This document shows, one piece after another, positions 4,192-64,000 of a stretch of 64,000 nucleotides of DNA (its first letter is position 1; the number at the start of each line of letters is the position of its first letter). The DNA lies in contig JAUYKM010000009.1 of NCBI GenBank assembly GCA_030699125.1, positions 6,358-70,357 on the forward strand. Direction: 5' to 3'. A program made the position numbers and the translations under genes. The stretch is from Candidatus Daviesbacteria bacterium (GTDB taxonomy: Bacteria > Patescibacteriota > Microgenomatia > Daviesbacterales > UBA10151). The notes beneath the pieces are model-generated. The model saw nothing but the letters and a program-made list of their open reading frames with translations, had not been told where the DNA came from and searched no databases.

Positions 4192-5562
4192 TTAATCTAT
4201 ATGCTGAATTTTTTCAAGTAAATAATCTCTCTTATTCTTTGTAGAATCTTCTAAGACTTCCTCAAAAAGTTTTTGGAGGATCTCTCCCACTTTTGGGCCG
4301 GGCTTAATGTTTAAAACTTTCATCACATCATGGCCATCCACTTTTAAATCAGCAATGGAAAATGGTTTTTTCAAAACTTGTTTAATTTTTTCTTTAAATT
4401 TTTCCATCCTCCATGATGTTTCTCTCTGTGTTCCTCCACCTAATCTATCACCAACTCGAAGAGCCATCATATCTTCGATATTTTCCAACCTCACATTTTT
4501 TATAAAACGCCTGATGGCAGAATCTGTTTGATCTTCATTAACAGAAAACATATGCCACCTGATTAATCTATAGAGCTTTTCAGTTTGTTTTTTAGATAGA
4601 TTAAATCTTTTGGCAATCTTCCTAGCTATATTTGCGCCCACCACATCATGTTGATAGAATGTGACATTGCCATCCTCTTGAGTGGAGACTGTATCAGGTT
4701 TACCAACATCATGGAGCAAGGCGGCAAATTTGGTAAGAGGATCATCTGATGGAGCATATTTGAGAGTAAGTAGGGAGTGTTCGCCAATATCATAGACTCT
4801 GTCATGTTTTGGTCCCTCCTGTTTAAGACCAAAACACCCCTCAAGTTCCGGCAAAATAATTTGCAGTATCCCCGCCTCCCTAAGTTTAACTATACCTATG
4901 TATGAACTGCTAGATGCAAGAATCTTGAAAAGTTCATCCCTGACTCTTTCATTGGCGATTTCTTTTAAAAGATGGGCATTTTTTGTGATAGCTGCAAAAG
5001 TTTTTTTCTCTATATCAAAACCCAATTCTGTGGCAAATCGAATGGCACGAATAAGACGTAGGGCATCTTCTTGGAACCTTTTCTGTGGATCACCCACAGC
5101 TCTAATGATTTTGTCTTTAATATCATCTTGACCATGGAATGGATCAGTTAATTGGATCCCCCGATTAAATCGGGGGATGACAGAGGCGGCAATGGCATTA
5201 ATAGTAAAATCCCTGCGAGCTAAATCTTCCTCAATATTATCTGTCCAGGAAAGCTTATCCGGATGACGGTGATCTTTATATATTCCCTCTTTTCTCATGG
5301 TGGTGATTTCAAAAATTCCATCACCACTATCAAACCCAACTGTACCAAACTTATTATCATAAAATCCCTCAGGAATCACTTTTAAAATCTCCTCCGGTTT
5401 TGCATCAGTGGTAAAATCCCAGTCCTTGACCTGCTTTTTCGTTAAAAGATCTCGGACTGCCCCTCCCACTATGTAAATTTGAAAGTTGGCTTTTTGAAAT
5501 TTATCTAAAATATTTTTTACTCTGGAAGGTAGTGTATAATCGTTCATGATTTCATCATTCAC
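4192..5562 (-). CDS. cca: CCA tRNA nucleotidyltransferase (polymerase beta-type head plus HD domain)
   Basis: IVGGAVRDLLTKK..DWDFTT nucleotidyltransferase head, RRDFTINA motif and a downstream HD-domain LHDVGKP. Confidence 0.85.
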   Translation of the reverse strand: MNDEIMNDYTLPSRVKNILDKFQKANFQIYIVGGAVRDLLTKKQVKDWDFTTDAKPEEILKVIPEGFYDNKFGTVGFDSGDGIFEITTMRKEGIYKDHRHPDKLSWTDNIEEDLARRDFTINAIAASVIPRFNRGIQLTDPFHGQDDIKDKIIRAVGDPQKRFQEDALRLIRAIRFATELGFDIEKKTFAAITKNAHLLKEIANERVRDELFKILASSSSYIGIVKLREAGILQIILPELEGCFGLKQEGPKHDRVYDIGEHSLLTLKYAPSDDPLTKFAALLHDVGKPDTVSTQEDGNVTFYQHDVVGANIARKIAKRFNLSKKQTEKLYRLIRWHMFSVNEDQTDSAIRRFIKNVRLENIEDMMALRVGDRLGGGTQRETSWRMEKFKEKIKQVLKKPFSIADLKVDGHDVMKVLNIKPGPKVGEILQKLFEEVLEDSTKNKRDYLLEKIQHID

Positions 5563-34458: not shown

Positions 34459-34561
34459 AACGAACTATCCAACATGGGAGGTTGATTAGGTTGACACCTA
34501 GGGAAAATTTTACTACCATTTTCTTATTGACTCTTGAAGGGGACGGTCCTGAGGTTTATTG

Positions 34562-35236
34562 TTATATCAATCTAAACTTAGCATTCTTTTTATATCTTCT
34601 TCTCAAATATTTCTTTTGGGCTCTGGTTGAAAATTTATTCGTTCCCAAAACCGCCTCTTCCTTTTCAAATAATTTTTCAATTTCTGAGAAATCTTGTTTA
34701 AGCCCATCATAAATAAATTTTTCATATTGTTTTTGCGACTTTTTTGTTTCTCCAACCAGACGGATGATATCTTCATCAAGGAAATAAAGCGATTCTTGAC
34801 CCACAGCCTCTCTGATACTGCTATATGGATATTTCATTGGGTCCTTAATTAGCCCTGCTTTGACTGGATTGAGATAAATGTATTGAGAAAGCTGGATAAA
34901 ATAAGGATCGCTTTCAATTAGAATACTTTTAAACCTATTTTGAAAAACAGGACCATAGTGATTATAAGTACGGTTAAAATACATGGAATAACTGGTTGTT
35001 AGGGAGGACATAATTTTTGAGATGGGGATTTTACGAGTATGGATAGAGATATGAAAGTGGTTTGGTATCAGACAAAAAGCGTATATGGAATGGTCATATT
35101 TACTTTTTAAACGATAAAGCTTATTTAAGAAAAAATGATAATCTGCCTCTTTTAGAAATACAGGCTGCTTATTAATACCCCTATTAAAAACATGATAAAA
35201 AGCATTTTCAAAAACAAATCTTGGCCCTCTAGGCAT
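34562..35236 (-). CDS. Y1 HUH tyrosine transposase, IS200/IS605 TnpA-like or REP-associated (RAYT)
   Basis: HUH motif NHFHISI and catalytic Tyr in YIYLNP. Flanked by inverted GGGACGGTCC hairpin repeats at 34529-34553 and 35283-35300. Confidence 0.7.
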   Translation of the reverse strand: MPRGPRFVFENAFYHVFNRGINKQPVFLKEADYHFFLNKLYRLKSKYDHSIYAFCLIPNHFHISIHTRKIPISKIMSSLTTSYSMYFNRTYNHYGPVFQNRFKSILIESDPYFIQLSQYIYLNPVKAGLIKDPMKYPYSSIREAVGQESLYFLDEDIIRLVGETKKSQKQYEKFIYDGLKQDFSEIEKLFEKEEAVLGTNKFSTRAQKKYLRRRYKKNAKFRLI

Positions 35237-35337
35237 TAAATAAACTATGACATTTTTAGGTTGCTATGCCAAGCTTTATGAGGACCGTCCCTAAGCGATA
35301 TTGCGCTCAGTATGTATGATATGTGTAGAATGGTATA

Positions 35338-46532: not shown

Positions 46533-49199
46533 ATGAAAAAAACAAAAACCAGACAAAACAAACCAATCTTACAAATTATGGCCATGCCAAAAAGGTTTGG
46601 CAGGAAAAAAACTAATGGTGAACATAAAACTAATGGTCACGGGGTAGACGGCAGAGGATTTGAAGACAGATTCATTCCCAGGTATAAAAAAATGCCCCCA
46701 GTGCCCAAAGATTTGCCTGTTCCTACTTTTTCCGAATCATCCAATAAAATTTTACAGGAGAGATATCTTCTTAAAGGCGGGGATCTTAAGGTGGTAGAGA
46801 GTATCTCTGATCGGTTTTGGCATATTGCCTATGATATTGCCTCGGGAGATTTTGATTTTGGCTATAGTGAGAGTGAAGTTTATAAAAATGCTTTGGAATT
46901 TTATACCATGATGGTCAGGCAACAGTTCCTGCCCAATTCCCCCACCATTATGAATGCAGGTAAACAAAATGGTCTGCAGTATTCTGCCTGTTTTGTACTT
47001 CCGGTGGGAGATTCTTTACCGGAAATTTTCGATTCAGTAAAGTACGCAGCATTAATCCACCAGACAGGCGGTGGAACCGGATTTGCCTTTTCCCGCCTTA
47101 GACCTGCTGGCTCAGTAGTCCGCACCACCGGCGGAGTGGCTTCCGGGCCGGTATCTTTTTTACGGGTCTTTAATGCTGCCACTGAATCTATCAAACAGGG
47201 CGGTACCAGGAGAGGTGCTAATATGGGGATTTTAAGAATTGATCATCCTGATATTCTGGAATTTATCAGATGCAAAGCAGAGTTGGATGATATGAATAGG
47301 CCGGTTTTTGAAAAAATTGCTCCGCTTTTGCCTGATGATAAGGCCAAAAAATATTTTAAAACCATGCTTTTAGATAAGCAGATCTCCAACTTTAATATCT
47401 CCTGTGCAGTTACAGAAAAATTTATGGAGGCTTTGGAGGCAGGCGAAAATTATGACTTGATCGATCCTCACTCAGGCGAGGTGGTGGGGCAATTAAATGC
47501 CAAAGAGGTTTTTGATGAAATAGTGGAGAGAGCCTGGTCTACCGGTGATCCGGGATTAATTTTTATAGACAGAATTAATGATTCTCCGGCCAATCCGGTG
47601 CCCAAATTAGAAACTATTGAGAGTACCAATCCTTGTGGCGAGCAGCCTTTGGCTCCCTGGGATGCCTGTAATTTGGGTTCCGTTAATTTAGGTAAGTTTG
47701 TCCGCCAGCTGGCGGATGGCAGCTCTGATGTGGACTGGGAGGGATTGAAAGAGGTAACTCGCAAAGCAGTTCACTTTTTAGATAATGTAGTTCAGACCAA
47801 CCCTTATACTTTAAAACAAATTTATGATGAAGTTCACCAAAATAGGAGGATTGGTTTGGGGGTGATGGGTTGGGCAGATATGCTTTTCAAGCTGAAAATT
47901 CCCTATAATTCTGATCAGGCTTTGGAGTTGGCAGAAAAGGTGATGAGTTTTATCAACAATGAGGGTCACAAAATGTCAGAGGAGCTTTCGAAAGAAAAAG
48001 GATCTTTCCCTAGTTGGGCCAACTCAATTTATGCAGATTCTAAATCTTCTGCCTTTAAAAATAGAGCTTCTGTGTATGCTTATCAGGGGGGAAAACCGAT
48101 TAGAAATTCCACTGTCACCACCATTGCTCCTACCGGTACTATCTCCATTATCGGAGATTGTTCATCCGGAATTGAGCCTGTTTTTGCTCTTGCCTATATT
48201 CATAGGGCAAAATCAGTGGGGGATCAGTACAGGGTTTTGACCATTGCCAATGAGACTTTTGAGGAGATTGCCAAAGAAAAGGGTTTTTATTCTCCAGATT
48301 TGGCCCAAAAAGTTTTAGAACACGGTTCTGTAACAGGGTTATCGGAGGTGCCGGATGAGTGGCAAAAAGTTTTTATTACTGCACCGGAGATTGACCCGAT
48401 CACACATGTTAAAATGCAAGCCATCTTTCAAAAACATACAGATAATGGAGTCTCTAAAACTATTAATCTGCCTAACTCTTCTACGGTTGATGACGTGAGA
48501 ACTGCTTATTTGATGTCTTATCAGACCGGCTGTAATGGTATCACCATCTATAGGGATGGTTCCAAAAGTACCCAAGTTTTAAATGTCTCATCTACTTTGG
48601 AAAAGAAACAGACGGAGGAGTCAGCAGAAGCGGCACCAATTGCCCAAAGGCCCATGATACTTCGGGGCAGAACTTATAAAGTGGCAACACCTGTGGGTGA
48701 GGCGTATATTACCATTAACAGAGATGAAAACGAACAGCCCTTTGAAGTCTTTGTGACTGTGGGTAAGGGCGGGATGCATACTATGGCAGATGCGGAAGCC
48801 ATGGGAAGACTGGTTTCTCTTTCTTTAAGGCTAGGTAGAAATGGCGGATCAACTGATCCTCGGGAGGTGGCTCAAAAGATTGCTTCTCAGCTGAAAGGAA
48901 TTGGCGGAGCTTCATCTGTAGGATTTGGGAAAAATAGGGTGATGAGTTTGGCTGATGCTATTGCTAAGGTGTTGGCTGAGGATTTGGCAGTTTCTGCTGA
49001 TGTAGAAGTGGTGGAACAAGTGCCCTTAAATCTGACTAATGGAGAAGCCAAAGAGGTTAATTCTGAGTCTGTTTCTGATCCGGCTACCAATTACCAACTA
49101 GCTACTAATGTAGATTTATGTCCGGAGTGCGGTTCAGCCTCATTTGTGATGGAAGAAGGCTGTAAAAAATGCCACTCCTGCGGATATTCCATGTGTTAG
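46533..49199 (+). CDS. nrdJ: Class II (adenosylcobalamin-dependent) ribonucleoside-triphosphate/diphosphate reductase
   Basis: TNPCGEQPL active-site motif and a C-terminal Cys-rich zinc ribbon. The track ORF starts at 46410 inside nrdR, so the ATG at 46533 is preferred. Confidence 0.85.
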   Translation: MKKTKTRQNKPILQIMAMPKRFGRKKTNGEHKTNGHGVDGRGFEDRFIPRYKKMPPVPKDLPVPTFSESSNKILQERYLLKGGDLKVVESISDRFWHIAYDIASGDFDFGYSESEVYKNALEFYTMMVRQQFLPNSPTIMNAGKQNGLQYSACFVLPVGDSLPEIFDSVKYAALIHQTGGGTGFAFSRLRPAGSVVRTTGGVASGPVSFLRVFNAATESIKQGGTRRGANMGILRIDHPDILEFIRCKAELDDMNRPVFEKIAPLLPDDKAKKYFKTMLLDKQISNFNISCAVTEKFMEALEAGENYDLIDPHSGEVVGQLNAKEVFDEIVERAWSTGDPGLIFIDRINDSPANPVPKLETIESTNPCGEQPLAPWDACNLGSVNLGKFVRQLADGSSDVDWEGLKEVTRKAVHFLDNVVQTNPYTLKQIYDEVHQNRRIGLGVMGWADMLFKLKIPYNSDQALELAEKVMSFINNEGHKMSEELSKEKGSFPSWANSIYADSKSSAFKNRASVYAYQGGKPIRNSTVTTIAPTGTISIIGDCSSGIEPVFALAYIHRAKSVGDQYRVLTIANETFEEIAKEKGFYSPDLAQKVLEHGSVTGLSEVPDEWQKVFITAPEIDPITHVKMQAIFQKHTDNGVSKTINLPNSSTVDDVRTAYLMSYQTGCNGITIYRDGSKSTQVLNVSSTLEKKQTEESAEAAPIAQRPMILRGRTYKVATPVGEAYITINRDENEQPFEVFVTVGKGGMHTMADAEAMGRLVSLSLRLGRNGGSTDPREVAQKIASQLKGIGGASSVGFGKNRVMSLADAIAKVLAEDLAVSADVEVVEQVPLNLTNGEAKEVNSESVSDPATNYQLATNVDLCPECGSASFVMEEGCKKCHSCGYSMC

Positions 49200-49288
49200 T
49201 TTCTCTTATATCATTCAAAATATGAAAAAAAATAATTACCTGTTATGAATTTCAAAATAATGTAAGTGATTCTATATGGAAGTTCTCA

Positions 49289-49618
49289 ATGAGTTCCCCA
49301 ATCCCAGAAATCTCAACCCCTGAAGCTACGGTTTTTTACGCATGGAAAGGAAATTCAGATACATCTCAAACTGATGTTACAGATGTTACTGTAGTTCGTT
49401 GTAGGGTCGATAATGATCCAAAACCACTTAACTTTGATATGTGGACGGTTAGCTCAACGGGGACAGTATCCGTTCTTGAAATCAAAGAGATAGAAAAATC
49501 AGAAATCCCGTATCATTGGATTAATAAAATTCCAGATGTATTGGAAAACGATGCTCCTCAATGGGTTAAAGATGTGATAGAAGAAAAACTTAATTTATTG
49601 AGAAAGATTAAAAAATAA
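49289..49618 (+). CDS. Hypothetical protein
   Basis: 109 aa. No recognisable domain. Confidence 0.35.
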   Translation: MSSPIPEISTPEATVFYAWKGNSDTSQTDVTDVTVVRCRVDNDPKPLNFDMWTVSSTGTVSVLEIKEIEKSEIPYHWINKIPDVLENDAPQWVKDVIEEKLNLLRKIKK

Positions 49619-49737
49619 AAATACCTGCTGATTTATATGTTAAAATCTTCTCGTGGATTCTAAAAAAGGATTAATGATTATATCTATTGATGAAGAGAAG
49701 AGGAAGATAACGGTTGTTTGAGCCTTAAGAAAACCAA

Positions 49738-50508
49738 ATATCCGCAGGTGTCAATACAGATACACCCCAAGGGTGTACATACAATATAAACTTTACTCCT
49801 CCTCCAACAACTGATGTTTTATTAGTTCTAACTTTTGGGCGTATTCCACACGTTCAAGAACAAATTCCTTATAATCTTCGGGGGATTTAAAAAAATTTAG
49901 GATTTCTTCTTTAGCGCAAAAGCCATCTTTTACCAGTCCAACATATTCCGGATATGAAGACCAACGATAATCTTTTAAATCCTTCACTAGAAGTGATGCA
50001 ATCGGGTTTAAGTGAATATAACGTGAGACATGAATTAACTGTTCATCAGATTCAATTAAAACAGCTTTGAATTCCCCCTGTAATAAAGGCCCAACTCTTC
50101 TGTACTTAACATTGTAGTATTTGGTATAGCTATTGCTAAGTTTACTGATAAATTCAGTAATTCCGCCATCTTTAAGTTGTCTAATAAGAAGATGGAAATG
50201 GTTTGGCATTAGACAATAGCAGATAATGTCCACGATTTTTTTGTTTGAATCGGGTTTAATAATAGAATTTGGTGAGAATCTGGAGAATCTTGGCTTGGGT
50301 CCTAATAATTGGTAATAGGTGATCGTCTTAATAAATCTTGAATAATCCCAATTTTTTTCAAATATTCTTCTTTTCTCTACACCTCGGTTATAAATATGGT
50401 AAAAATGACCGTTAACAAATGGAAAAATTCTGGAAGGCATTTGAACCTATCGTACTCTCAATATCCGCAGGTGTCAATACAAAAACACCCCAAGGGTGTA
50501 CATACAAT
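49738..50508 (-). mobile_element. IS200/IS605-like element: a Y1 transposase flanked by 48-bp near-identical direct subterminal repeats carrying a GTACACCC-AA-GGGTGTAC hairpin
   Basis: Repeats at 49738-49785 and 50461-50508 differ at 3 positions. Same-strand hairpins at both ends fit the IS200/IS605 LE/RE architecture. Confidence 0.6.
49793..50440 (-). CDS. Y1 HUH tyrosine transposase (IS200/IS605 TnpA or RAYT-like)
   Basis: HUH motif NHFHLLI and catalytic Tyr in YIHLNP. Paralog of the 34562..35236 gene. Confidence 0.7.
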   Translation of the reverse strand: MPSRIFPFVNGHFYHIYNRGVEKRRIFEKNWDYSRFIKTITYYQLLGPKPRFSRFSPNSIIKPDSNKKIVDIICYCLMPNHFHLLIRQLKDGGITEFISKLSNSYTKYYNVKYRRVGPLLQGEFKAVLIESDEQLIHVSRYIHLNPIASLLVKDLKDYRWSSYPEYVGLVKDGFCAKEEILNFFKSPEDYKEFVLERVEYAQKLELIKHQLLEEE

Positions 50509-50536
50509 GTCAGATAAGGTTTGTTAGAATGGGCAC

Positions 50537-51079
50537 ATGAGTGACATCAATGAAGATCAGGGGTTGGTTATTTTATATACCGGGGAAGGGAAGGGGAAGA
50601 CTACGGCGGCGTTGGGTTTGGTTTTGCGGGCCACCGGATACGGCAGGAAGTGTTTAATTATCCAGTTTGGCAAGATTTGGTTTACGGGGGAAATCTCTGG
50701 AATAAAAAAATTAGAGCCTTTGGTAAAAATAATTCAGGGAGGTAAGGGATTTGTTAAGATTTTAGGGGATAAATTACCTCTTTCTGAGCACAAAAAAGCT
50801 GCCAAAGAAACCTTTGAACTGCTGCAAAAAGAAATGACATCAGGTAAGTGGGATGTGATAGTGGCAGATGAAATTGTGGGAGCTGTTTCCTCTGGTTTAC
50901 TGCCAATTAGCAAAGTGATAAGATTAATTAAGGAAAGATTGGAAGGATTAGATCTGGTTTTAACCGGTCACCATGCTCCTAAAAAATTAATTGATCTAGC
51001 TGACTTGGTTACTGAGATGAAACCGATCAAACACCCTTTTGAGAAGGGAATTTTAGCAAAACAGGGTATTGACTTTTAG
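50537..51079 (+). CDS. cobO: Cob(I)alamin adenosyltransferase (CobA/CobO/BtuR family)
   Basis: P-loop GEGKGKTTAALG and ADEIV. 180 aa. Confidence 0.8.
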   Translation: MSDINEDQGLVILYTGEGKGKTTAALGLVLRATGYGRKCLIIQFGKIWFTGEISGIKKLEPLVKIIQGGKGFVKILGDKLPLSEHKKAAKETFELLQKEMTSGKWDVIVADEIVGAVSSGLLPISKVIRLIKERLEGLDLVLTGHHAPKKLIDLADLVTEMKPIKHPFEKGILAKQGIDF

Positions 51080-51108
51080 CACTCGCTGTGATACTCTGCT
51101 AAATTATA

Positions 51109-53577
51109 ATGACTGATTTTATTAAACCATCATTATCTTCACAATCGCCGATTAAGCTCAAACCAACCATGGCCGTGGGGCCTTTAAGGGATACAGTAAT
51201 TTTTCCTGGCAATTCCGTACCAATTATTTCCGGCAGACCTAAGTCCAAAGCTGCCCTGGATGCTTCTTGGAATTCTGATAAATTGATTGTTTTTGTCACT
51301 CAAAAAAATTCCAAAATTGAGGATCCCAGCGAAAAAGATTTATATAAAGTAGGCACAGTCTGTTTGATCAGGAGAGTGGTAAAAAATCCGGAGGGTGAAT
51401 ATACCCTTCAGGCAGAAGGATTATCCCGAGTTTATTTAAAATCCTTTACCCAGACCCAAGCCTATCTTGAGGCAGAAATTGAGGAGATCCCCGAGCTTTA
51501 CGAAAGATCAGAACAAACAGAGGCCCAGGTTCGAACAGTCAAAGAACAAGTTAAAAGATATCTGGAGCTTGGCGGCAATCCCTTCTTTGATCAGAGTGCT
51601 TTTACCAACTGGTCCATCTTTACCTACACAGATGATCCCAACCAGCTGGTTAACTCAGTTGCGCAAGTAATTGATTTTAAAACCATAGATAAGCAGCAGA
51701 TTTTGGAAATGGTATCTGCGCAGGAGAGACTACAAAGATTATCCGAGCTTTTAGCCAAAGAAATTAGAGTGATGGAGATTTCCCAAAAAATTTCTTCTCA
51801 AACTAACGAGAGAGTTTCCCGTATGACCAAAGAGGCTATTTTGAGAGAACAGATGAAAAGCATTGAAGAAGAGTTAGGGGAAGGATCAGAAAATCAGGAG
51901 ATTCACGAATTTGAGTCAAAAATTAAAAAGAGCGGCATGCCAAAAGAGGTGGCGGAACGGGCCAAGAAAGAGCTATCCAGATTAGCCAAGATGTCATCTT
52001 ATAATCCTGAGGCAGGCTACATTAGAAATTATCTGGAATGGTTGACTGATTTAGTTTGGAAAATGGGGAAAAAGGCCAAAATTAATCTTAAAATTGCTGA
52101 AAATATCTTAGATGAAGACCATTATGGATTAAAAAAAGTTAAGGAAAGGATTCTGGAGTATCTGGCTGTTCATAAACTGGCAGGCAAAATGAGAGGACCA
52201 ATCCTTTGTTTTGTGGGACCCCCAGGAACAGGGAAAACATCCATTGGTAAATCCATTGCCAGAGCCTTGGGAAGGAAGTTTGTCAAAGTTTCTTTGGGAG
52301 GCATTAGGGATGAGGCGGAAATCCGCGGCCATAGGAGAACTTATGTGGGATCCATGCCAGGCAGAATTATTCAGGGAATAAAACAGGCAGGGGCAGTTAA
52401 TCCGGTTTTTATGCTGGATGAGATTGACAAATTAGGTTTGGATTATCGGGGTGATCCATCAGCCGCATTACTCGAAGCATTGGATCCGGAGCAAAACGAG
52501 GGTTTCTCTGATCACTACCTGGAAGTGCCTTTTGATCTGTCTAACGCCATGTTTATTACCACTGCCAATATTTTAGACACCATCCCTCCAGCTCTAAGAG
52601 ATAGACTTGAGGTAATCAGATATCCGGGTTATACAGAAGACGAGAAATTCCATATTGCTAAAAAGTTTTTAATTCCCAAACAGATTGACAATCATGGATT
52701 AAAAACTAACCAGATTGAGTTTAGCGACGAAGCGATATATTCTGTAATTAGAGAATATACTAGGGAGGCAGGGGTGAGAAATCTGGAAAGAGAGCTTTCT
52801 GCGGTGATGAGAAAAGTGGCCAGAAAAATAGCTGAAGGTAATGGAGAGGCCCGCCTGCCCGCTTCGCCGGAGCTTCAGCGAGGCGAGCCGGACGGGCAGG
52901 TGAAAAAGTTTAATCCGGATGATATTCATAAATTCCTAGGTCCTGTTAAATTCTTACCACAGCTGGCTGAGATTGAAGATACAGTGGGTATGACTACTGG
53001 TTTATCTGTGACAGAAGCAGGGGGAGAGATTTTATTTATTGAGGTGACTCTGATGCCAGGAAAAGGTATCTTGCTTTTAACCGGACAATTAGGTGAGGTT
53101 ATGAAAGAGTCAGGACAGGCTGCTATGTCGTATGTCAGAGCTCACTGGAGAGAGTTGGGATTGTCTGAGAGATTTTTCCATAAGGTAGATGTTCATGTGC
53201 ATGTACCTGAGGGAGCCATCCCCAAAGACGGCCCATCAGCTGGTATTGCTTTAACTACAGCCATTGTTTCTGCTTTCAGTAGAATTCCGGTTCATAAAGA
53301 AGTGGCTATGACCGGGGAAGTGACTTTGCGCGGCAGAGTTTTGGAAATAGGCGGATTTAAAGAGAAAGTTTTGGCTGCTCACAGAGCCGGGGTAAGGGTT
53401 ATCATTGCACCTTCAGATAACCAGAAGGATCTGGAAGATATTCCTGACTTTATACAAAAAGATCTAAGATTTGTTTTTGTTAAACACATGGATGATGTTT
53501 TAAAAGTAGCCTTAATTCATTCTCCCAAGCCAGTCCAGCATAAAACAGTCCCCATCACTCCGGCATACCTGGCCTAA
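51109..53577 (+). CDS. lon: ATP-dependent Lon protease
   Basis: N-terminal LON domain, AAA+ GPPGTGKTS and protease PKDGPSAG with catalytic Ser. Contains a 52-bp GC-rich in-frame insertion. Confidence 0.9.
52849..52900 (+). repeat. GC-rich palindromic mini-element (CGAGGCGAG family, with outer CCTGCCCG/CGGGCAGG arms) inserted in frame in lon
   Basis: GCCCGCCTGCCCGCTTCGCCGGAGCTTCAGCGAGGCGAGCCGGACGGGCAGG encodes [17 protein letters not shown]. Confidence 0.6.
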
Positions 53578-56031: not shown

Positions 56032-56047
56032 AGCCTATTTCAAAACT

Positions 56048-56119
56048 GTCATTCCCGCGTATGCGGGAATCCAATTAACAGATTTTATTAAATGGATCCC
56101 TGCCTTCGCAGGGATGACA
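56048..56119 (+). mobile_element. Cargo-less MITE-like element: two family-B hairpins in inverted orientation (GTCATTCCCGCGTATGCGGGAATCCAATTAA ... GGATCCCTGCCTTCGCAGGGATGAC)
   Basis: Same terminal inverted repeats as those flanking the GIY-YIG gene at 63108-63463. Confidence 0.55.
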
Positions 56120-56172
56120 AAAGAGGTTTTGAAATGACTCCTAGATAATGGAGTGATATATTACATGAAATA

Positions 56173-63107: not shown

Positions 63108-63463
63108 ATTAGATTATGTCATTCCTGCGAATGCAGGAATCCAATTAACAGATGTATTATTATGTCTATATTTTGGCAAGTGGAATAAATGGCACTTTGT
63201 ATATAGGTGTTACAGATAATTTAGTCAGAAGGGTTTGGGAACATAAACATGATTTGGTAGAAGGATTTACCAAAAAGTACGATATACATGATCTTGTATA
63301 TTATGGGCAACACCAAGACATTAATGAGGCCATTTTAAGAGAAAAACAAATGAAGAAGTGGAAAAGATATTGGAAAATAAAACTGATTAATAAGATGAAT
63401 CCAAAATGGAAAGATTTATATATTTCTATTGTTTAATTGGATCCCCGCCTACGCGGGGATGAC
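63108..63463 (+). mobile_element. 356-bp element with terminal inverted repeats carrying a GIY-YIG nuclease gene as cargo
   Basis: Left end GTCATTCCTGCGAATGCAGGAATCCAATTAA. Right end TTAATTGGATCCCCGCCTACGCGGGGATGAC. Each end is itself a hairpin. A cargo-less copy lies at 56048-56119. Confidence 0.55.
63152..63436 (+). CDS. GIY-YIG nuclease family protein (YhbQ/UPF0213-like)
   Basis: YYVYILASGINGTLYIGVTDNLVRRVWEHK is a GIY-YIG core. 94 aa. Confidence 0.75.
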   Translation: MYYYVYILASGINGTLYIGVTDNLVRRVWEHKHDLVEGFTKKYDIHDLVYYGQHQDINEAILREKQMKKWKRYWKIKLINKMNPKWKDLYISIV

Positions 63464-63469
63464 AGAAAT

Positions 63470-64000
63470 ATGAAGATTAATGATCTTAAAAAGATTTTAA
63501 AGGTATTTCTTACCTTGCAATGGGCCAAGGAGTTGCCCAGGCAGGGATTTATTGCCATGGGGTTTAAAAGAAATGAGGCGGATTCTGTGGCTGCCCATTC
63601 TTTTTCCACTGCCCTCCTAGCTTATTTTTTGGCCAAACAACTACAAAAAGAAGGAAAAAAAATAGATGCAGATAAAGTTCTAAAAATGGGACTTGTTCAC
63701 GATATTGGAGAAACAATAGTGGGGGATGTGGGCACTTTTGTTAAAGGGATGGCAGGAGGAGTATTTAAAAATATAGAAGAAGAGGGGGTAAAAGCTTTAG
63801 TGGATGAATTAGATTCCAAGGATGAGATTATCTCTTTAGTTTCAGAATATAACAGCAGAAAAACTTTAGAGGCAAGGGTGGTTAAGGTTGCAGATAATCT
63901 GGATGCTTTGGCTCAAGCCAAAGGTGTACCTGGGGCAAAAGATGCGTTAAAATATTTTAAGGAGGTCTATCACATTACCCGCTTTGACTGGCACAAAAGG
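63470..64000 (+). CDS. HD-domain phosphohydrolase (YfbR-like 5'-deoxynucleotidase), 3' end beyond the window
   Basis: AAHSFSTALLAYFLA...VHDIGETIVGD H..HD motif. Open to the window end, so not in the ORF track. Confidence 0.6.
   Translation, partial: MKINDLKKILKVFLTLQWAKELPRQGFIAMGFKRNEADSVAAHSFSTALLAYFLAKQLQKEGKKIDADKVLKMGLVHDIGETIVGDVGTFVKGMAGGVFKNIEEEGVKALVDELDSKDEIISLVSEYNSRKTLEARVVKVADNLDALAQAKGVPGAKDALKYFKEVYHITRFDWHKR

Follow-up and report, generated by a model that had tools for sequence, protein, structure and literature searches.

A Y1/HUH gene between direct hairpin repeats at the nrdJ-cobO junction of Candidatus Daviesbacteria

Introduction

In a genome of Candidatus Daviesbacteria, a gene for a Y1/HUH protein, bracketed by two nearly identical repeats, separates nrdJ from cobO. 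Is this a transposon that has recently broken the junction, a host gene that no longer moves anything, or something between the two? We studied a 64-kb stretch of DNA (contig JAUYKM010000009.1, positions 6,358 to 70,357; hereafter the window), in which the region reads, along the + strand, nrdR, nrdJ, an open reading frame (ORF) named orf109, a repeat, the Y1 gene, a second repeat, a spacer and cobO. nrdJ ends at 49199, with nrdR and nrdJ lying on one side of the Y1 unit, and cobO (PF02572) starts at 50537 on the other side, 28 nucleotides (nt) beyond the repeat at 50460-50508.

The original prediction, made from the sequence alone, had taken positions 49738-50508 for an inserted unit of the IS200/IS605 type of insertion sequence (IS). 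Our analysis favours, with a probability of about 60%, a low-mobility, mostly vertically inherited unit of IS200 style, ~770-780 bp long (roughly 49737-50517), whose enzyme resembles the RAYT and TIRYT proteins (subclass 2.1-like). This reading draws on features computed here: the anatomy of the unit, its conservation and covariation across the family, the co-divergence of hairpin and protein, positional orthology, empty sites, one relocation and purifying selection. Loci of relatives are cited by our own handles (L001, P0015 and so on).

Results

The Y1 gene (49793-50440, - strand) is bracketed by a direct repeat of 49 nt with two mismatches, at 49737-49785 and 50460-50508. Direct repeats around the gene had been predicted correctly, but with a length of 48 bp and three differences. 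The 64-kb window contains no third copy (chance expectation, 0 matches), and the further end copies that the original prediction proposed to look for are therefore absent from it; the only paralog there is 38% identical. In gene orientation the upstream, or left-end, copy (50460-50508, - strand) reads ATTGTATGT-[ACACCC TTG GGGTGT]-TTTTGTATTGACACCTGCGGATATT, a layout shared by the positional orthologs, and its hairpin (50485-50499, - strand) has a 6-bp stem and a 3-nt loop followed by a terminator-like TTTTTG. The downstream, or right-end, copy (49737-49785, - strand) begins 8 nt past the Y1 stop codon and carries a hairpin with a 7-bp stem and a 3-nt loop (49761-49777, - strand). On the + strand these hairpins read ACACCC-CAA-GGGTGT (50485-50499) and TACACCC-CAA-GGGTGTA (49761-49777); the perfect 8-bp hairpin GTACACCC-AA-GGGTGTAC described earlier does not occur in the sequence, the actual stem being 6-7 bp around a CAA loop. 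The hairpin with its TTTTTG is the sole terminator-like site that the scan tool found in the region, and a search of 49000-51200 against Rfam gave no matches. When 63-nt segments with the hairpins were folded singly as DNA, the energies were -5.8 to -6.5 kcal/mol (z-scores -1.6 to -2.3). This single-sequence signal is modest, and the strong support for the hairpins is comparative.

With a weaker continuation included, the duplication spans 69 nt (49717-49785 versus 50440-50508; 84% identity). In gene orientation this continuation reaches the start codon, so that the downstream copy repeats the complete 5' non-coding part of the gene in decayed form. Its decayed tail (49717-49736, - strand; AGGCTCAAA versus AGGTTCAAA) is equivalent to the stretch from the -10 box up to the ATG of the upstream copy, and is also conserved in the ortholog L007. 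A second element 3' of the hairpin, TTGACACCTGCGG in the window, is a half-copy of it; half-copies of this type change jointly with the hairpin in L009, L010 and L086, and L033 has a full second hairpin. We also considered a 15-nt inverted match between the repeat box (CACCTGCGGATATT) and the 3' end of nrdJ (49174-49188) as a mimic of end or target. Here ACTCCTGCGGATATT in nrdJ is complementary at 14 of 15 positions to AATATCCGCAGGTGT in the repeats (49737-49751 and 50460-50474). This candidate was rejected: the nrdJ codons vary among orthologs (CTCCTGTGGATAC and others), the repeat box stays fixed, and the match is probably a coincidence aided by the conserved CxxCGY coding.

Are the paired hairpins a property of the family? 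A search with the protein gave 7,927 matches (E<=0.001), the named ones mostly from Candidatus Daviesbacteria, and we fetched 80 genome loci with homologs at 42-80% identity. For 78 loci, the 120 nt upstream of each gene were compared with the 120 nt downstream, base pairing not being considered. The cognate direct match scored >=13 in 62 of the 78 (median 17, versus 7 for non-cognate upstream/downstream pairs), and in 53 of those 62 the repeat contains a perfect stem-loop of at least 5 bp. The direct match was the better one in 60 loci and the inverted match in 17. Upstream hairpins begin ~55-63 or ~32-36 nt ahead of the start codon, and downstream ones begin within ~45 nt after the stop. The same-strand hairpins around a Y1/HUH gene that had been predicted, the IS200 design, are thus present here and conserved across the family.

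Between clades the stems differ on both sides at once (CACCC/GGGTG, CACCT/AGGTG, AACCT/AGGTT, CACAC/GTGTG) and follow the protein tree. In a set of 90 distinct hairpins with 3-nt loops, 80.9% of cells were paired versus 67.4% in shuffles, and the covariation score was 0.391 versus 0.164, a value reached by 0 of 500 shuffles, although the inner five stem pairs had been pre-selected as pairing, an ascertainment bias. The fourth stem pair, outside this selection, is CG in 27 cases and AU in 24. L086 has two newer hairpin variants and, outside them, a third copy that is still of the type seen in the window, which shows turnover of the hairpins with both ends updated together. Some relatives have more elaborate ends (upstream of the Y1 gene in L088; flanks of L015, L027 and L061-L065). 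In some members the ends form long composite palindromes, L088 having a 16-bp doublet stem; in others the box CCGCAGGTGT stands in inverted orientation on the 5' side of the downstream hairpin, and their ends are therefore inverted rather than direct (17 of 78 loci).

These comparisons dispose of an account in which the repeats are a chance likeness or a functionless, neutral remnant of a local tandem duplication. The decaying copy of the whole 5' region would fit it; upstream/downstream pairing in 62 of 78 loci, lineage-specific compensated stems and the 0 chance matches expected in the window would not. It is already contradicted by the comparative data, and we hold it to be scarcely credible. 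Nor are the repeats part of a larger duplicated segment unrelated to the transposase, the outcome that the original prediction had named as its refutation.

The protein itself, 215 amino acids (aa) long, has the HuH motif H81-F-H83, Q121, the catalytic tyrosine motif Y141-IHLNP and W160-SS-Y. As predicted, it is a Y1 HUH protein with an HFH motif and a catalytic tyrosine: it matches Pfam Y1_Tnp (PF01797) at 31.8 bits (cut-off 23), and in an alignment of 37 homologs H81-F-H83 and Y141 are invariant. Invariant or nearly so in the same set are Y14-H15, N18-R19-G20, N80-H81-F82-H83, Q121, Y141-I-H-L-N145-P146 and S161-S162. Compared with L096, a relative 96.4% identical, 14 codons carry synonymous and 4 non-synonymous changes (all conservative replacements), and the hairpin is the same; the gene is under purifying selection.

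Its assignment to the IS200/IS605 type did not hold. According to Quentin et al. (PMC6006769), Y---Q marks IS200-type enzymes and Y---NP class 2, and our protein has the class-2 set (NHFH, LQ, YIHLNP, WSSY) and lacks the Y---Q signature of IS200/IS605 TnpA. The only NCBIfam match at E<=0.01 was REP_Tyr_transpos, at 52.5 bits and under its equivalog cut-off of 80; no IS200-type model matched. A search of the PDB with the single sequence was uninformative and a profile was required: the family profile found 4ER8 (E. coli TnpAREP/RAYT) at E=5e-4, before the TnpA of ISDra2 at 0.08. An AlphaFold2 model (pLDDT 85.8) likewise has 4ER8 as its best fold match (E=3e-7, TM 0.66), followed by IS608, ISDra2 and IS200 TnpA, with IS608 and ISDra2 at E~1e-4. 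Residues 163-213 of the model form a helical tail, in which Pfam detects no helix-turn-helix (HTH) or DnaA_C domain. Because of the Y---NP motif, the best match to 4ER8 and the sole NCBIfam match to REP_Tyr_transpos, the gene does not encode an IS200-type TnpA; the enzyme falls on the RAYT/TIRYT branch and resembles TnpAY1 subclass 2.1.

A class-2 enzyme whose nearest solved structure is 4ER8 raises the possibility of a strict REPtron, that is, a RAYT that spreads its flanking palindromes (repetitive extragenic palindromes, REPs, or REPINs) across the genome. Some relatives (L040, L020, L054, L071, L075 and L034) do have solo cognate hairpins in intergenic regions nearby, and the genes in between are ordinary. 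However, 765 kb of related DNA yielded no more than 11 such copies, and the 64-kb window none; the flanking copies here are direct, not inverted; and the NCBIfam equivalog cut-off for RAYTs is not reached. A GT[AG]G tag is also missing from the 5' foot of the hairpin, which in the window reads ...GTATGT without GTAG, and no 4-nt tag is conserved at this position across the family. We consider a strict REPtron improbable. An integron-like reading of the direct hairpins that bracket neighbouring genes in L040, L020, L071 and L054 was rejected as well: the bracketed genes (methyltransferase, DDE integrase, ABC1 kinase, Mur ligase) are ordinary, and local REP-like scatter is therefore the simpler reading. 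On viral contigs, no Y1 relatives were found.

We then asked how old the unit is at this junction. The closest genome homologs (L001-L005, L007-L010 and L038; 68-80% identity) all lie between cobO and nrdJ, with Lon and PPase genes beyond, as do P0020, P0010, P0056 and P0103 (between cobO and nrdJ) and the five metagenome loci L086-L088, L090 and L092; L096, counted with these, is too short to reach nrdJ. A scan with cobO yielded junctions without the Y1 gene, a state that the original prediction had proposed to seek among strain variants. In L084 (nrdJ TGTTAG-AATGAGCTC-ATG cobO) and L089 (TGTTAA-AATTCCCTC-ATG) only 9 nt separate the nrdJ stop from the cobO ATG, which bears out the claim that the unit interrupts this junction. 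The other junctions without the gene have a 72-nt gap (L091) or other DNA (L081-L083 and L094). In a neighbour-joining tree of Lon, occupied loci occur across the ingroup. Because L084 and L089 are nested among these and the gene is missing from the outgroups L091 and L094, we read the pattern as one old insertion followed by several losses. The insertion is old, dating to an ancestor of this Daviesbacteria clade; a recent or strain-level event is at odds with positional orthologs of 68-80% identity that hold the same junction across the clade.

The old boundary is still legible. Directly before the cobO ATG lies TGTTAGAATGGGCAC (50522-50536, + strand), which repeats the stop region of nrdJ (TGTTAG). 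The functional copy of that region at 49194-49199 (+ strand), identified from the sequence and the empty sites, is the other half of a 6-bp duplication around the inserted segment. TGTTAGAATGGGCAC contains the extended -10-like TGTTAGAAT and lies 22 nt from the left-end hairpin. All occupied loci keep TGTTAGAATG.GC.CATG directly before cobO, with the extended -10-like TGnTAGAAT, which may serve as a promoter. From this motif to the hairpin core the distance is 21-22 nt in all orthologs, and the sequence between is not conserved. For the target motif that the original prediction expected 5' of the left end, there is a candidate: TTAAC[A/C], found in two independent contexts, 21-24 nt from the hairpin core, with TGTTAG/TTAACA on both sides of the segment.

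On the nrdJ side the spacing is loose. In the compact relatives L003, L090, L169, L170 and L172, 30-95 nt separate the Y1 stop from the nrdJ stop. In the window this space is occupied by orf109 (49289-49618, + strand), a lineage-specific ORF outside the Y1 unit that has no Pfam or NCBIfam match and no tblastn match in the orthologous loci, where other ORFs or none are found. In almost every genome this space (49289-49618 in the window; the same position in L001, L002, L004, L005, L007, L010 and L038) contains a different small ORF, and the region looks like a one-sided hotspot of gene gain, the cobO side being fixed at 21-22 nt.

A sign of movement comes from P0015, a relative 76% identical. 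At the places read, which come from many samples, its neighbours are an EamA gene on one side and an F420-ligase-like gene on the other. It nests in the nrdJ|cobO clade beside L001 and L004 and has the same hairpin-plus-box at both ends. It is homologous to the nrdJ|cobO copies only from ~-62/-77, counted from the ATG, to ~+56, counted from the stop; its left flank is likewise TTAAC(C). A complete unit at another locus means that the unit has moved at least once. In window coordinates this homology places it at ~49737 to 50509-50517, essentially the interval 49738-50508 of the original prediction. An apparent strain polymorphism beside P0015 (L161 versus L162) proved to be a difference in gene calling only, the DNA being 99.99% identical. 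A second site, where a paralog lies by the PPase gene in L019, L028, L033 and L042 (none in the window), was tried for defining the boundaries; it offered no clean empty site because the gene content of the region differs between genomes.

Could the unit nevertheless be an ordinary, currently active IS200/IS605 element that recently entered the junction? Its size and layout are those of IS200, with same-strand hairpins at both ends, and Pfam Y1_Tnp matches. Against this, the tyrosine motif is Y---NP and not Y---Q (PMC6006769, Table 1), REP_Tyr_transpos is the sole NCBIfam match, and the protein has 215 aa rather than about 150. There is no second copy in 64 kb, orthologs at this site have identities of just 68-80%, and copies within a genome are 55-70% identical, versus ~99% for IS200 as given in PMC6006769. 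Synteny and motif tests already contradict an active, recent element, which we regard as very improbable.

The left end has a further property. A sigma-70-like promoter, TTGACA-17-TACGAT (50449-50477, - strand; 10/12 matches with the scan tool), precedes the Y1 gene: its -35 box and spacer lie inside the repeat, and the -10 box (TACGAT) ends 8 nt ahead of the ATG. Matches of >=9/12 stand at the equivalent place in 40 of 76 family loci, versus 2.5 expected from shuffles; 35 of those 40 have a perfect TTGACA, and their -10 boxes end 5-10 nt ahead of the start codon. Because of this spacing, and because Shine-Dalgarno-like motifs occur in only 7 of the 76 loci, the Y1 mRNAs are predicted to be leaderless. 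cobO also appears leaderless, TGTTAGAAT ending 6 nt before its ATG (50522-50539), and neither of the divergent genes cobO and Y1 (50449-50440) has a clear Shine-Dalgarno motif. In genomes without the insertion, the -10 box of cobO overlaps the nrdJ stop codon.

A promoter of this kind also suits the main rival of our reading, in which the gene is fully domesticated. The Y1 protein would then move nothing, the upstream palindrome would act as promoter and insulator and the downstream one as a terminator or mRNA-stability element, and their likeness would stem from gene conversion or from autoregulatory binding of both. Several observations agree with this: a promoter within the repeat in 40 of 76 loci, a downstream copy in the window that repeats the entire 5' region in decayed form (consistent with conversion or duplication), purifying selection on the gene, and positional orthologs throughout the clade in which Y1 (68-80% identity) is about as conserved as its neighbour cobO (65-75%). 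RAYTs in general act like housekeeping genes (PMC5581495). On the other side, P0015 has the whole unit among other genes and its homology stops a short way beyond the repeats, nested lineages have lost the unit cleanly, the few cognate solo hairpins in nearby intergenic regions suggest activity at the level of DNA, and the downstream hairpin, having no T-run, would make a poor terminator. Relocation, nested losses and solo hairpins argue only mildly against full domestication, which we consider unlikely but take seriously.

Some repeats and genes of the window lie apart from this unit. A second Y1/HUH paralog (34562-35236, - strand; 224 aa, 38% identical, Pfam Y1_Tnp 44 bits) is flanked at 35281-35292 and 34539-34550 by an inverted repeat of 11-12 nt, AGGGACGGTCCT upstream and AGGACCGTCCCC downstream (the GGGACGGTCCT pair), which matches the TIRYT consensus GGGGWSAS at 7 of 8 positions. 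With these TIRYT-like flanks, the window therefore holds one unit with direct hairpins and one that is TIRtron-like. A separate family of ~35-nt palindromic repeats, unrelated to the Y1 hairpins, has at least five copies in both orientations (about 5148-5190, 56043-56125 and 63113-63470), for example GTCATTCCCGC-gtat-GCGGGAATCCAATTAAC and TTAATTGGATCCCCGC-ctac-GCGGGGATGACAG; a similar element, GTCATTGCGAGG...GAAGCAATC, fills the nrdJ-cobO gap in L094. nrdJ carries an intein in some relatives (within the nrdJ body of L004, L010 and L172, with Intein_splicing and LAGLIDADG in L172), and L010 and L038 have a second, displaced copy of the C-terminal CHSCGYSMC coding stretch of nrdJ ~130 nt from the real end. 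The nrdJ of the window has neither the intein nor the displaced copy.

Discussion

How might such a unit work? We propose that the protein is a class-2 HUH/Y1 endonuclease for single-stranded DNA, whose cognate hairpin marks both ends of the unit, in two copies on one strand. The hairpins would fold when the DNA is single-stranded, for instance on the lagging-strand template, and the enzyme would bind both; Tyr141, with a metal held by H81 and H83, would cut beside them. Such cutting could permit excision and reinsertion ("peel and paste"), probably beside a TTAAC-like site. The predicted right-end/left-end circle junction is ...CCTGCGGATATT joined to the sequence 5' of ATTGTATGTACACCC, and the predicted donor joint is the TGTTAG of nrdJ followed directly by AATGGGCACATG. 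The unit would have entered the nrdJ|cobO junction in the ancestor of the clade and then been inherited vertically, with some losses and at least one relocation. Its left end may have a second role, as a terminator-like hairpin followed by the gene's own promoter, which would drive a leaderless mRNA. On this low-mobility reading, the two ends stay matched because the enzyme must recognise both.

Several points weigh against the low-mobility unit as we describe it. We see no sign of recent transposition: no near-identical second copy was seen, which makes movement rare; identity to the query is 55-70% for copies within a genome and 38% for the other paralog of the window. All but one of the close homologs examined share the same junction, which also fits a domesticated, immobile gene. 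The 6-bp duplication (TGTTAG/TTAACA) on both sides of the inserted segment is unexpected for an element of this style. The flanking elements are mutually inverted in about a fifth of loci, and a same-strand arrangement is therefore not a universal requirement. The hairpin is short (6-7 bp), with a single-sequence fold z-score of only ~-2, and the covariation count carries the bias mentioned above. Finally, the chemistry of binding and cleavage is inferred, as are the strand that is active, the positions of the cuts and the target.

More speculatively, and with the odds against it, this Microgenomates clade may represent an extant intermediate stage that links autonomous transposons of the IS200 type with the "domesticated" RAYT/TIRYT genes. 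A class-2 enzyme would here keep same-strand hairpin ends, still move as a unit and seed a few solo hairpins, while the left-end palindrome has been co-opted as a promoter and the enzyme could regulate itself by binding the transposon end. If true, the several diverged paralogs per genome, each with a private hairpin, would constitute an orthogonal set for recognising single-stranded DNA, which these very small genomes keep for a host function.

A large, well-conserved clade in which a subclass 2.1-like enzyme is joined to ends of IS200 style offers a concrete model for the origin of RAYT-type genes from IS200-like elements. Dozens of natural enzyme/hairpin pairs with compensated stems are usable for the study of specificity in DNA-hairpin recognition, and the very small genomes of the candidate phyla radiation (CPR) keep several such units for long periods. 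For annotation, "active IS200 transposase" is not a suitable label for this gene, and the separation of nrdJ from cobO should be seen as an old, clade-wide feature rather than a recent disruption.

Comparison with known systems

With IS200 (IS200/IS605 family, TnpAY1 subclass 1.1) the unit shares a single Y1/HUH gene in ~0.7-0.8 kb, subterminal hairpins on the same strand at both ends, of which the left one resembles a terminator and precedes the promoter of the transposase, and the fold of the enzyme. It differs in the catalytic motif, Y---NP instead of Y---Q (Y[IV]ENQ), and in the protein, whose 215 aa include a helical C-terminal extension of ~65 aa where IS200 has the core only, ~150 aa. 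The unit is also of low copy number, mostly vertically inherited and without tnpB, and an apparent 6-bp duplication surrounds its segment, whereas classical IS200/IS605 elements make no target duplication.

RAYT/TnpAREP proteins with their REPs (REPtron, 4ER8) provide the best profile and fold match and the same Y---NP motif, and they too combine low copy number and vertical inheritance with an enzyme that co-evolves with its flanking palindromes. In contrast, the palindromes are mostly direct here, have no GT[AG]G tag and show little amplification in the DNA scanned, with no further copy in the window and 11 in the 765 kb of related loci, and the protein scores 52.5 against the NCBIfam RAYT cut-off of 80.

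By motif comparison alone, the protein fits TnpAY1 subclass 2.1 and the TIRYTs of TIRtrons (NHFH, L/FQ, YIHLNP, WSSY; PMC6006769, Table 1). That source characterises subclass 2.1 by NH[YF]H / FQ / Y[IV]HLNP, serines conserved after the core and a median of 238 aa, and equates it with Bertels group 1, largely TIRYTs. The length class agrees, as does the presence of several diverged copies per genome (PMC6006769, PMC3733652). For this subclass PMC6006769 reports no associated hairpins or REPs from either automatic or manual search, whereas the present Microgenomates clade has short, GC-rich, mostly direct hairpins. TIRYTs, as described by Di Nocera 2013 (PMC3733652), have flanking terminal inverted repeats, GGGGWSAS, and a C-terminal HTH/Bac_DnaA_C-like domain is a further feature of this group; in our 215-aa protein Pfam detects none, and the model has a helical tail. 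CPR bacteria are not mentioned in the parts of Quentin 2018 (PMC6006769) and Di Nocera 2013 (PMC3733652) on which this comparison draws. Set beside these systems, the anatomy of the unit is that of IS200, and its enzyme and population behaviour, with low copy number, diverged paralogs and vertical descent, are those of the class-2 RAYT/TIRYT proteins (PMC5581495, PMC6006769, PMC3733652).

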